Part shown: in pieces, positions 59,402 through 64,000 of the stretch
Layout: every line of letters begins with the position of its first letter
How positions within the stretch are numbered: position 1 is the stretch's first letter
Origin: Escherichia coli
GTDB lineage: Bacteria; Pseudomonadota; Gammaproteobacteria; Enterobacterales; Enterobacteriaceae
DNA: 64,000 nt
Assembly: GCF_003018255.1 (NCBI RefSeq)
Contig: NZ_CP027440.1
Reading direction: 5' to 3' (one strand)
The notes under the pieces: generated by a model
Told to the model about the DNA's origin: nothing
Databases searched by the model: none
Seen by the model: only the letters and a program-made list of their open reading frames with translations
Made by a program: the position numbers and the translations under genes

Positions 59402-60667
59402 TTAACCTGAACGACGACGATTACGCGGAGCACCAGTACGACGCGGACCATTGCCTGTACGCGGGCGCGTGAGGCGCAGCGGTTTTGGCAGATCGGTCAT
59501 CAATGCGTCCGGATTGTATTTGCTTACCGGAATTGAGTGACCAATATAGGTCTCAATAGCAGGCAAATTCAATGCATACTCTTCACATGCCAGGCTGATG
59601 GAATGACCACTTGCGCCAGCGCGACCTGTACGACCAATACGGTGAACGTAATCTTCACAGTCATCGGGTAAATCGTAGTTAAAGACGTGCGTCACAGCCG
59701 GGATATGCAGGCCACGCGCGGCAACATCGGTGGCAACCAGAATATCCAAATCACCACGGGTAAATTCATCAAGAATACGCAGACGTTTTTTCTGCGCGAC
59801 ATCGCCTGTCAACAAACCGACACGATGACCATCTGCCGCCAGGTGGCCCCAGATCTCTTCACAACGGTGTTTGGTGTTGGCGAAAATAATCGCTCTGTCT
59901 GGCCACTCTTCTTCGATCAGCGTTTGCAGCAAACGCATTTTTTCTTCGTTAGAAGGGTAGAAAAGCTCTTCTTTAATACGGTGGCCCGTTTTCTGTTCCG
60001 GTTCCACTTCAATATATTCGGCATTGTTCATCTGCTCGAACGCCAGTTCACGTACCCGGTACGAAAGCGTGGCGGAGAACAGCATGTTGAGGCGCTGGTT
60101 TGCAGGCGGCATACGGCGGAACAGCCAGCGGATATCTTTAATAAAGCCCAGATCGTACATACGATCGGCTTCGTCCAGTACCACTACCTGAATGGCACCG
60201 AGGTTAATGTGGTTCTGCTTGGCGTAGTCAATTAAACGCCCCGTGGTGCCAATCAGAATGTCAACGCCGCTTTCCAGCACTTTCAGCTGTTTGTCGTAGC
60301 CATCACCACCGTAAGCCAGACCCAGCTTCAGGCCGGTAGCTTGCGCAAGTGGCTCCGCGTCGGCGTGGATCTGCACGGCAAGTTCACGCGTCGGTGCCAT
60401 AATTAAGGCACGCGGTTGATTCACCTTGCGATCGGCAATCGCGGGATGAGAGAGAAGATAATGAAACGTTGACGTAAGAAACGCCATCGTTTTCCCGGTA
60501 CCGGTTTGCGCCTGCCCGGCTACGTCACGACCCGCCAGCGTCAGCGGAAGGGCCAGTGCCTGAATGGGCGTACAGTTATGAAACCCTTTTTTTTCAAGGG
60601 CTTCTACAACCTTCGGATGCAGGGCGAAGTCGGAAAACTTCTGTTCTGTTAAATGTGTTTTGCTCAT
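59402..60667 (-). CDS. rhlB: ATP-dependent RNA helicase RhlB (DEAD-box)
   Basis: 421-aa ORF with Walker A-type motif AQTGTGKT, a DEAD box and an Arg-rich C-terminus. Confidence 0.96.
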
Positions 60668-60797
60668 AGTGTGGTAGAATATCAGCTTACTATTGCTTTA
60701 CGAAAGCGTATCCGGTGAAATAAAGTCAACCTTTAGTTGGTTAATGTTACACCAACAACGAAACCAACACGCCAGGCTTATTCCTGTGGAGTTATAT

Positions 60798-61127
60798 ATG
60801 AGCGATAAAATTATTCACCTGACTGACGACAGTTTTGACACGGATGTACTCAAAGCGGACGGGGCGATCCTCGTCGATTTCTGGGCAGAGTGGTGCGGTC
60901 CGTGCAAAATGATCGCCCCGATTCTGGATGAAATCGCTGACGAATATCAGGGCAAACTGACCGTTGCAAAACTGAACATCGATCAAAACCCTGGCACTGC
61001 GCCGAAATATGGCATCCGTGGTATCCCGACTTTGCTGCTGTTCAAAAACGGTGAAGTGGCGGCAACCAAAGTGGGCGCACTGTCTAAAGGTCAGTTGAAA
61101 GAGTTCCTCGACGCTAACCTGGCGTAA
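60798..61127 (+). CDS. trxA: Thioredoxin 1
   Basis: 109 aa from [41 protein letters not shown]...; WCGPC active site; the track ORF begins 35 codons upstream. Confidence 0.97.
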
Positions 61128-61267
61128 GGGAATTTCATGTTCGGGTGCCCCGTCGCTAAAAACTGGACGCCCGGCGTGAGTCATGCTAACTTAGTGTTGA
61201 CTTCGTATTAAACATACCTTATTAAGTTTGAATCTTGTAATTTCCAACGCTTCCCGTTTTATCTTAA

Positions 61268-61369
61268 ATGCGAAGTGAACAGATTTCTGGCTCGTCACTC
61301 AATCCGTCTTGTCGTTTCAGTTCTGCGTACTCTCCTGTGACCAGGCAGCGAAAAGACATGAGTCGATGA
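61268..61369 (+). CDS. rhoL: rho leader peptide RhoL
   Basis: 33-codon ORF MRSEQISGSSLNPSCRFSSAYSPVTRQRKDMSR upstream of rho; not in the ORF track. Confidence 0.8.
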   Translation: MRSEQISGSSLNPSCRFSSAYSPVTRQRKDMSR

Positions 61370-61453
61370 CCGTAAACAGGCATGGATGATCCTGCCATAC
61401 CATTCACAACATTAAGTTCGAGATTTACCCCAAGTTTAAGAACTCACACCACT

Positions 61454-62713
61454 ATGAATCTTACCGAATTAAAGAATACGCCGGTTTCTGAGCTGATCAC
61501 TCTCGGCGAAAATATGGGGCTGGAAAACCTGGCTCGTATGCGTAAGCAGGACATTATTTTTGCCATCCTGAAGCAGCACGCAAAGAGTGGCGAAGATATC
61601 TTTGGTGATGGTGTACTGGAGATATTGCAGGATGGATTTGGTTTCCTCCGTTCCGCAGACAGCTCCTACCTCGCCGGTCCTGATGACATCTACGTTTCCC
61701 CTAGCCAAATCCGCCGTTTCAACCTCCGCACTGGTGATACCATCTCTGGTAAGATTCGCCCGCCGAAAGAAGGTGAACGCTATTTTGCGCTGCTGAAAGT
61801 TAACGAAGTTAACTTCGACAAACCTGAAAACGCCCGCAACAAAATCCTCTTTGAGAACTTAACCCCGCTGCACGCAAACTCTCGTCTGCGTATGGAACGT
61901 GGTAACGGTTCTACTGAAGATTTAACCGCTCGCGTACTGGATCTGGCATCACCTATCGGTCGTGGTCAGCGTGGTCTGATTGTGGCACCGCCGAAAGCCG
62001 GTAAAACCATGCTGCTGCAGAACATTGCTCAGAGCATTGCTTACAACCACCCGGATTGTGTGCTGATGGTTCTGCTGATCGACGAACGTCCGGAAGAAGT
62101 AACCGAGATGCAGCGTCTGGTAAAAGGTGAAGTTGTTGCTTCTACCTTTGACGAACCAGCATCTCGCCACGTTCAGGTCGCGGAAATGGTGATCGAGAAG
62201 GCGAAACGCCTTGTTGAGCACAAGAAAGACGTTATCATCCTGCTCGACTCCATCACTCGTCTGGCGCGCGCTTACAACACCGTTGTTCCGGCGTCAGGTA
62301 AAGTGCTGACCGGTGGTGTGGATGCCAACGCCCTGCATCGTCCGAAACGCTTCTTCGGTGCGGCGCGTAACGTGGAAGAGGGCGGCAGCCTGACCATCAT
62401 CGCTACCGCGCTTATCGATACCGGTTCCAAGATGGACGAAGTTATCTACGAAGAGTTTAAAGGTACAGGCAACATGGAACTGCACCTCTCTCGTAAGATC
62501 GCTGAAAAACGCGTCTTCCCGGCAATCGACTACAACCGTTCCGGTACCCGTAAAGAAGAGCTGCTCACTACTCAGGAAGAACTGCAGAAAATGTGGATCC
62601 TGCGCAAAATCATTCACCCGATGGGCGAAATCGATGCAATGGAATTCCTCATTAATAAACTGGCAATGACCAAGACCAATGACGATTTCTTCGAAATGAT
62701 GAAACGCTCATAA
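61454..62713 (+). CDS. rho: Transcription termination factor Rho
   Basis: 419 aa from [40 protein letters not shown]...; the track ORF begins 24 codons upstream. Confidence 0.98.
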
Positions 62714-62730
62714 ATTTGTCTTATGCCAAA

Positions 62731-62764
62731 AACGCCACGTGTTTACGTGGCGTTTTGCTTTTAT
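62731..62764 (+). terminator. rho rho-independent terminator
   Basis: AACGCCACGT-GTTT-ACGTGGCGTT hairpin followed by a T-rich tract. Confidence 0.8.
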
Positions 62765-62952
62765 ATCTGTAATCTTAATGCCGCGCTGGCAATGTTAGGA
62801 AAATTCCTGGATTTTGCTGGTGTGTTATGCAATTTGCATATCAAATGGTTAATTTTTGCACAGGACTGGTGGGTTCGGAACGGACTTTCCCTTCTGAATA
62901 AAGGTCTTCGTGGTTATACTTCTGCTAATAATTTTCTCTGAGAGCATGCATT

Positions 62953-64000
62953 GTGAATTTACTGACAGTGAGTACTGATCTCATCAGTATTTTTTTATTC
63001 ACGACACTGTTTCTGTTTTTTGCCCGTAAGGTGGCAAAAAAAGTCGGTTTAGTGGATAAACCTAACTTCCGCAAACGTCACCAGGGATTGATACCTCTCG
63101 TTGGGGGGATTTCGGTTTACGCAGGGATTTGCTTCACGTTCGGAATTGTCGATTACTATATTCCGCATGCATCTCTCTATCTCGCTTGTGCTGGTGTGCT
63201 TGTTTTCATTGGCGCGCTGGATGACCGTTTTGATATCAGCGTAAAAATCCGTGCCACCATACAGGCCGCTGTTGGCATTGTTATGATGGTGTTCGGCAAA
63301 CTTTATCTCAGTAGCCTGGGTTATATCTTTGGCTCCTGGGAGATGGTGCTCGGACCGTTTGGTTACTTCCTGACGCTATTTGCCGTCTGGGCGGCCATTA
63401 ATGCGTTCAACATGGTTGATGGCATTGATGGCTTGCTGGGTGGGTTGTCCTGCGTCTCGTTTGCAGCAATCGGTATGATTTTGTGGTTCGACGGGCAAAC
63501 CAGTCTCGCAATCTGGTGCTTTGCGATGATCGCCGCCATCCTGCCATACATCATGCTTAACCTTGGTATCCTGGGTCGCCGCTACAAAGTCTTTATGGGG
63601 GATGCGGGCAGTACGCTGATTGGTTTTACCGTTATCTGGATCCTGCTCGAAACGACCCAGGGCAAAACTCATCCCATCAGCCCGGTTACCGCTTTGTGGA
63701 TAATCGCCATTCCGCTAATGGATATGGTGGCGATTATGTACCGTCGCCTGCGTAAAGGCATGAGCCCATTCTCTCCAGACCGTCAGCATATTCACCATTT
63801 GATCATGCGTGCCGGGTTTACTTCCCGCCAGGCGTTTGTGCTGATTACCCTTGCCGCAGCACTGCTCGCTTCCATTGGCGTGCTGGCAGAATATTCTCAT
63901 TTTGTCCCGGAGTGGGTCATGCTGGTGCTCTTTTTGCTAGCATTCTTCCTCTATGGATATTGCATCAAGCGTGCCTGGAAAGTTGCTCGCTTTATTAAGC
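62953..64000 (+). CDS. wecA: UDP-GlcNAc:undecaprenyl-phosphate GlcNAc-1-phosphate transferase WecA (Rfe), runs to the window end without a stop
   Basis: GTG-initiated frame translating (M)NLLTVSTDLISIFLFTTLFLFFARKVAKKVGLVDKPNFRKRHQG...; absent from the ORF track because of the GTG start and missing stop. Confidence 0.9.
   Translation, partial: MNLLTVSTDLISIFLFTTLFLFFARKVAKKVGLVDKPNFRKRHQGLIPLVGGISVYAGICFTFGIVDYYIPHASLYLACAGVLVFIGALDDRFDISVKIRATIQAAVGIVMMVFGKLYLSSLGYIFGSWEMVLGPFGYFLTLFAVWAAINAFNMVDGIDGLLGGLSCVSFAAIGMILWFDGQTSLAIWCFAMIAAILPYIMLNLGILGRRYKVFMGDAGSTLIGFTVIWILLETTQGKTHPISPVTALWIIAIPLMDMVAIMYRRLRKGMSPFSPDRQHIHHLIMRAGFTSRQAFVLITLAAALLASIGVLAEYSHFVPEWVMLVLFLLAFFLYGYCIKRAWKVARFIK

Follow-up and report, generated by a model that had tools for sequence, protein, structure and literature searches.

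The rho leader of Escherichia coli: a Rho-dependent attenuator in which selection most likely acts on the RNA rather than on the RhoL peptide

Genes and features of the rho leader region

The DNA analyzed here is a 64,000-nt stretch of an Escherichia coli chromosome, referred to below as the window. The part of the window from 59.4 to 64 kb is the E. coli chromosome segment that carries rhlB on the minus strand, trxA, rhoL, rho, and wecA. Both the feature table of an identical locus and the list of open reading frames placed rhoL between trxA and rho and on the same strand as rho. An initial annotation of this DNA, made from its letters, had described a 33-codon leader ORF lying 84 bp upstream of rho, and both the ORF and the gap were recovered at exactly these lengths (Table 1). 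It had also proposed an alignment with the E. coli rhoL/rho leader, and this returned a sequence with 100% identity and equal CDS coordinates. A 501-nt query around the leader was 100% identical to RefSeq E. coli chromosomes, and the RefSeq CDS pair of an identical E. coli record mapped exactly onto the coordinates of rhoL and rho. Of 5426 complete E. coli genomes, 5425 carried the leader with at least 95% identity, and nearly all of those sampled had it at 100%.

When compared with protein families, the RhoL peptide matched NCBIfam NF007433, "rho operon leader peptide RhoL" (PRK09979), over residues 1-33 of 33 with 95.2 bits against a cutoff of 85 (E = 1.5e-27). A family for the RhoL peptide was not found in Pfam. 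An Rfam search in E-value mode of positions 60600..63000 assigned no family to the rho leader. By identity and coordinates, the interval is the known E. coli rho leader with the annotated rhoL. It agrees with that of E. coli K-12 in locus, sequence, CDS coordinates, and neighbors (rhlB, trxA, and wecA), with no sequence differences. The rhoL-rho leader is in this respect an already known and ordinary locus, and the circuit of Rho autoregulation has been known since the 1980s. Positions in K-12 were obtained by adding 3904963 to the window coordinate, and the conversion was checked against printed 61-mers.

Table 1. Features of the rho leader region, in window coordinates
Feature	Position	Strand	Description
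Probable rho/rhoL promoter	61197..61225	+	-35 TTGACT at 61197..61202, 17-nt spacer, -10 TATTAA at 61220..61225
rho leader (5' UTR)	61232..61453	+	~222 nt, from the putative start site to the rho ATG
rhoL ORF	61268..61369	+	ATG, 33 sense codons, then TGA (MRSEQISGSSLNPSCRFSSAYSPVTRQRKDMSR); RefSeq CDS WP_001295255.1
Predicted long imperfect hairpin	61288..61372	+	Over rhoL codons 8 to 33; RNAalifold consensus of 11 Enterobacteriaceae
Term-seq RNA 3' end inside rhoL	61359	+	K-12 3966322 (Adams et al. 2021, supplementary files 1 and 3)
rhoL-rho spacer	61370..61453	+	84 nt; C-rich, G-poor, rut-like core
Mini-ORF in the rhoL-rho spacer	61386..61415	+	9 codons, MILPYHSQH then stop
rho CDS	61454..62713	+	419 aa; RefSeq CDS WP_001054527.1
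Rho-dependent termination zone early in rho	61504..61541	+	Published (Adams et al. 2021 supplements)
C-rich, G-poor stretch inside the rho ORF	61622..61777	+	Candidate intragenic rut site, from composition
rho intrinsic terminator	62729..62756	+	12-bp stem, then T run

The probable promoter of rhoL and rho was placed by eye and by the conservation of its hexamers, TTGACT and TATTAA, in Escherichia, Salmonella, and Citrobacter. A scan for the sigma-70 consensus did not call it because the -10 hexamer ends in A. With the promoter in this position, transcription would start at about 61232. At the other end of the transcription unit, a primary Term-seq 3' end at K-12 3967721, or window position 62758, matches the intrinsic terminator of rho (Adams et al. 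2021 supplements).

Most of the rhoL frame is predicted to lie within a long imperfect hairpin. Compensatory changes were seen at 4 of its base pairs, compared with 1.8 +/- 0.9 in shuffles, of which 15 of 500 reached 4, and the covariation gives the predicted hairpin weak support. The folding z-scores were -1.42 for the hairpin and -1.67 for the whole leader, neither of which is significant.

Several further observations were made on the neighbors of the leader. The sole Rfam match in the region searched was to TrxA_thermometer (RF02773), which covers the 5' UTR and start region of trxA at 60728..60827 on the plus strand with 78.8 bits against a gathering score of 58. The 3' end of trxA carries a hairpin (61142..61182, plus strand; CGGGTGCCC...GGACGCCCG) that has no T run after it, and published Term-seq 3' ends lie at window positions 61179 and 61182. 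The 3' arm of this hairpin, CTGGACGCCCG, is conserved across genera, and its 5' arm and loop are variable. In Salmonella enterica (locus L093, 1831..1960), the interval between trxA and the rho promoter has an insertion of ~90 nt that is absent from E. coli and contains a 12-nt perfect inverted repeat (CGTCGAATGACA ... TGTCATTCGACG). Downstream, the rho-wecA interval holds a 72-aa ORF (62723..62941, plus strand) that overlaps the terminator hairpin of rho, has no Pfam match, and appears among the gene calls of some assemblies (such as locus L082, 2470..2688). This ORF is probably spurious.

The rhoL frame and the leader RNA in related bacteria

The patterns of conservation described here, like the identity, coordinates, and composition of the leader, were observed in this analysis, and the comparative set was small, at ~15 species of Enterobacterales. 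Exact-protein look-ups with Rho gave only E. coli-like loci, and a look-up with TrxA supplied those of Salmonella and Citrobacter. Relatives of the RhoL peptide were gathered via exact cluster look-ups.

Among the loci compared, only those of Escherichia and Shigella had a rhoL ORF initiated with ATG. All Escherichia species seen, namely E. coli, Shigella, E. albertii, E. fergusonii, and E. ruysiae, carry it intact, and the exact-sequence RhoL cluster consists of E. coli, Shigella, E. ruysiae, and E. fergusonii variants. The E. albertii version has 32 codons, with two missense changes and an earlier stop. Outside Escherichia the leader retains high DNA similarity without a start codon for rhoL. 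At its position stand ACG in Salmonella and GCG in Citrobacter and Enterobacter BIGb0383, and Superficieibacter is without the segment bearing the start; neither ATG, GTG, nor TTG was found as a rhoL start in any of these four. Indels that shift the rhoL frame were found in C. werkmanii, Klebsiella BIGb0407, and Enterobacter Ag1.

The substitutions within the frame were then compared with those in the flanking genes. Between E. coli and Salmonella, the differences at codon positions 1, 2, and 3 numbered 4, 5, and 3 in rhoL, as compared with 2, 2, and 59 in rho (Fisher p = 1e-6) and 2, 0, and 20 in trxA (p = 2e-4). The same even spread was seen in the rhoL frame of the other genera compared. 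In related genera, then, rhoL did not behave as a conserved coding sequence, and from the even spread of substitutions over codon positions, the absent starts, and the indels it follows that the RhoL peptide appears not to be under purifying selection. The initial annotation had made its reading depend on conservation of the leader ORF, and this was found within the genus and fails outside of it. The absence of the ORF outside Escherichia leaves the identity of the feature unchanged; as far as these comparisons go, it does undercut the peptide as a conserved functional unit.

Entries named "rho operon leader peptide" are nonetheless present in databases for Salmonella, at 44 or 27 aa, and for Citrobacter, at 30 to 42 aa. 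In the loci examined these begin at ATC, ATA, or ATT (loci L093, 2027..2161; L095, 1961..2080; L099, 2000..2092; and L100, 2078..2161), and one of them starts directly 3' of the -10 hexamer. They look like annotation propagated by homology rather than real start sites.

A different pattern emerged when the leader was examined as nucleotide sequence in 11 Enterobacteriaceae. None of the 36 columns at the 5' end of the leader was invariant, as compared with 12 of 33 over rhoL codons 1 to 11, 44 of 69 in the remainder of rhoL, 60 of 84 across the spacer, and 57 of 60 in the first 60 nt of rho. The start of rhoL is located in sequence evolving at approximately the neutral rate, and the conserved block, from about 61301 to 61513, crosses the rhoL stop and the rho start with no break at the boundaries of the ORFs. 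In Yersinia, Photorhabdus, and Acerihabitans, an nhmmer profile of the leader detected only the last ~85 nt, which corresponds to the spacer.

The spacer is also distinct in composition. The initial annotation had suggested looking for C-rich, G-poor, rut-like sequence, and this was found in the 84-nt spacer, with 28.6% C and 14.3% G, and not in the rhoL ORF, whose composition is unbiased at 24.5% C and 24.5% G. The 78-nt window at 61388..61465 has 23 C and 8 G (29.5% and 10.3%), and its excess of C over G is matched by only 0.9% of 78-nt windows in the 64-kb sequence. Unlike the rho coding sequences, in which C and G are approximately equal, the 100 nt preceding rho contained more C than G in 76 of 80 gammaproteobacterial loci (median 27.5 C and 15 G). 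The most C-rich, G-poor stretch of the region is stronger than the spacer and lies within rho at 61622..61777, where C reaches up to 41% with G at ~17% in 78-nt windows that are among the top 0.15% of those in the 64-kb sequence. This stretch may serve further attenuators. Judged by its conservation, the leader most likely works through its RNA, between about 61301 and 61513, and not through the RhoL peptide.

Part of that block lies inside rho. Third codon positions are invariant at 18 of 20 sites in rho codons 1 to 20, as compared with 92 of 280 (33%) in codons 21 to 300 (p = 5e-7; 11 Enterobacteriaceae). This freezing of the early codons (61454..61513) could reflect a constraint on translation initiation rather than the attenuator, which is conceivable because rho is almost without Shine-Dalgarno pairing (-1.4 kcal/mol). 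Ahead of the rho ATG, at a distance of 14 to 22 nt, lies a conserved UUUAAGAAC motif.

Rho-dependent attenuation and the possible roles of rhoL

Rho dependence, Rut binding, and sRNA control of this leader are taken from the literature, which bears out the earlier placement of rhoL in the region of Rho autoregulation by attenuation. Autogenous attenuation of rho in the E. coli K-12 leader was described by Matsumoto et al. 1986 and Barik et al. 1985, as reported in papers citing them. RNA polymerase occupancy drops from rhoL to rho (PMC12121999; PMC5499598), and in a rho R66S mutant occupancy in rho increases 12-fold (PMC12121999). A Term-seq 3' end at K-12 3966467, which is window position 61504 and 50 nt into rho, has a Rho score of 7.07 and an intrinsic-terminator score of 1.2 against a threshold of 3, and a BCM-sensitive region peaks at K-12 3966504, or window position 61541, with a score of 7.8 (p = 1.3e-215; Adams et al. 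2021). Helicase-SELEX (H-SELEX) gave a Rut peak in the rho 5' UTR (PMC9499579), and Rho-dependent terminators have been placed both in the 5' UTR and in the rho ORF (PMC10268239). In Salmonella, the sRNA SraL pairs with the rho leader and blocks attenuation. The best duplex predicted here joined leader positions 61302..61327 with positions 76..105 of SraL (RyjA) at -22.4 kcal/mol; the SraL site was not callable from this energy, as 34 of 40 shuffled leaders paired equally well or better. No intrinsic terminator, consisting of a hairpin and a T run, was predicted on the plus strand from 61232 to 61600. The locus has in these respects what marks a Rho-dependent attenuator of the 5'-leader kind: ~80 nt of C-rich, G-poor RNA lie upstream of the stop points, and an intrinsic terminator is lacking.

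These data suggest the following course of events. Transcription would most likely start near 61232 from the conserved promoter, and the ~222-nt leader together with the first ~60 nt of rho would form a Rho-dependent attenuator. Rho would load on RNA that is C-rich, G-poor, and free of ribosomes, chiefly the spacer, with the pyrimidine-rich stretch at 61301..61330 perhaps serving as a further loading site. RNA polymerase would then be stopped just inside rho, between about 61504 and 61541, such that more Rho would lead to less full-length rho mRNA in a direct negative feedback. The rhoL ORF would overlie this conserved RNA, having gained its ATG only in the Escherichia lineage, and the act of translating it would at most modulate the attenuator in Escherichia. 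We infer the transcription start, the segment serving as rut site (from composition and conservation), and that the peptide has no role. Taken as a whole, with the RhoL peptide not under selection, this explanation is in our judgment very probably correct, and we have very little confidence in a function for the RhoL peptide itself.

One alternative is that RhoL is a true regulatory leader ORF, whose translating ribosomes would melt the hairpin and either mask rut RNA or make it accessible. The efficiency of rhoL translation, for example under Mg2+ limitation, would then set Rho-dependent attenuation. Such an arrangement would resemble mgtL, corL, toiL, or tnaC, and the geometry is the one typical of uORF-gated Rho attenuators, with rhoL ending just 5' of the C-rich spacer. 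The ORF is annotated and matches an NCBIfam equivalog, and it has been kept throughout Escherichia in a leader that is nearly invariant in 5425 genomes. As a bare ORF, however, rhoL is no more than expected by chance, since dinucleotide-preserving shuffling of the 222-nt leader produced an ATG ORF of at least 33 codons in 646 of 3000 cases (22%). What goes beyond chance is its identity with the annotated gene and the nucleotide conservation of the leader around it. Ribosomes probably do initiate at rhoL in E. coli, as rhoL was among the small ORFs whose start-site signal in Ribo-RET increased at least 3-fold under Mg2+ starvation (PMC11429745). Shine-Dalgarno pairing upstream of its ATG was not found (+1.2 kcal/mol, as compared with -5.9 for trxA), and the AUG lies inside a small 5' hairpin in the predicted minimum-energy fold. 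Tetracycline, furthermore, did not significantly change RNA polymerase occupancy in rho (PMC12121999).

Genetic results bear on rhoL as well. Insertions in or deletions of rhoL give phenotypes in published work, in which the leader RNA is removed or disrupted too. A multicopy fragment containing rhoL weakens sRNA termination, as does inhibition of Rho, and came from the same screen that yielded the Rho inhibitor Rof (PMC9765468). Every such manipulation, whether deletion, insertion, or multicopy, also alters the leader RNA. The leader RNA is conserved in Salmonella, Citrobacter, Enterobacter, and Superficieibacter, which have no canonical rhoL start, and attenuation is documented in Salmonella although rhoL has no start codon there. 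With these points and the even distribution of substitutions over codon positions, we consider it unlikely that rhoL is a regulatory ORF, or that its translation modulates the attenuator in Escherichia.

It is unlikely, too, that a second and shorter ORF has this role. Within the spacer lies a 9-codon mini-ORF (Table 1), and a short ORF with its ATG 65 to 68 nt before rho was found in 12 of the 15 Enterobacterales examined, including Yersinia and Photorhabdus, as well as in 2 Pantoea symbionts. The mini-ORF is more widely kept than rhoL, and an invariant AACAGGC precedes it. The conserved unit might then be an element of ~85 to 210 nt (61301..61513) present across Enterobacterales, in which translation of a mini-uORF gates the loading of Rho on the spacer, and rhoL would be a recent, Escherichia-specific ORF that arose from a single C-to-T change. 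The mini-ORF is absent from the list of novel ORFs in one E. coli Ribo-RET study, with no entry at K-12 39663xx (Stringer et al. 2021 supplement).

The Term-seq end inside rhoL raised another question, that is, whether a stable RNA from the 5' region of the leader (~61232..61359) builds up, binds Rho, and acts as a decoy in trans in addition to its action in cis. This end was represented by ~6200 reads in LB at OD 2.0 and in M63, and sits 2 nt past the inner stem of the predicted hairpin; the multicopy rhoL fragment recovered alongside Rof would also fit a decoy. The end is explained equally well by exonuclease trimming of Rho-terminated transcripts, which would be cut back to a protective stem, and this is how we would read it. 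The rhoL ORF segment is, moreover, not especially C-rich, and we regard a decoy in trans as improbable.

The term "leader peptide" brings to mind trpL, hisL, pheL, leuL, and thrL, which like rhoL are short ORFs so annotated upstream of a regulated gene. In ribosome-mediated attenuators of the trpL, hisL, and pheL type, an amino acid is sensed through codons of the peptide, and an intrinsic terminator arises from alternative hairpins. The rho leader shares with these only its general layout, a short leader ORF that overlaps a hairpin. Unlike those leaders, rhoL lacks a string of regulatory codons, is not conserved as an ORF across genera, and is not accompanied by an intrinsic terminator, a hairpin with a T run not being predicted on the plus strand anywhere in the leader from 61232 to 61453. 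The published intrinsic-terminator score at the attenuation site is below threshold, and termination there is BCM- and Rho-dependent. With neither the terminator hairpin nor the regulatory codons that define the class, a trpL-type attenuator is effectively refuted.

There is next to no likelihood that Rho itself begins further upstream, at the Met at 61382, which would make the spacer coding and Rho a 443-aa protein. The mechanical ORF list did contain the 443-aa ORF from this in-frame Met, as the initial annotation had accurately remarked in preferring the start at 61454. In E. coli, E. albertii, Salmonella, and some Citrobacter, the rho frame continues upstream through 26 open codons and has an ATG at codon -24. 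In 80 of 80 gammaproteobacterial loci, however, the homologue starts at the Met at 61454, with MNLTELK or a near variant as the N-terminus of Rho and an alignment from residue 1, and an in-frame upstream ATG before a stop was found in only 11 of the 80. The N-terminal extension, rather than being supported by homologues, is frame-shifted or stopped in several Enterobacterales: from 61382 it carries a stop in Citrobacter FP75, and just 4 codons are open 5' of the rho ATG in Klebsiella BIGb0407, Enterobacter Ag1, Yersinia, Acerihabitans, and one Photorhabdus. Solved Rho chains in the PDB align from residue 25 of the 443-aa ORF, and Shine-Dalgarno pairing was not found for a start at 61382.

Relation to known attenuators and significance

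As a Rho-dependent attenuator, the rho leader resembles the 5'-UTR attenuators of rpoS, mgtA/mgtL, corA, topAI/toiL, and cfa, which sRNAs or uORFs gate, in having a long leader, C-rich and G-poor RNA, early BCM-sensitive termination, and a counteracting sRNA (SraL). It differs from all of these in that the terminated gene is rho itself, which makes the negative feedback direct. When the comparison is narrowed to the attenuators gated by a uORF, a role for translation of rhoL gets no backing from conservation.

What the present comparison adds to the known circuit is mildly new, namely that selection would appear to keep the leader RNA and not the peptide. The elements of this are a rhoL ORF confined, among the loci compared, to Escherichia, annotation propagated elsewhere from non-canonical starts, a conserved RNA core that extends into early rho, and a mini-ORF that occurs more broadly than rhoL.

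Rho terminates a large share of bacterial transcription, and the circuit that sets its level matters for this reason. Phenotypes attributed to deletion of rhoL or to control by a leader peptide are best treated as effects on the leader RNA until a start-codon mutant shows otherwise. The useful outcome lies in annotation, as the name RhoL has been spread by homology to Salmonella and Citrobacter, where selection would act on the RNA.
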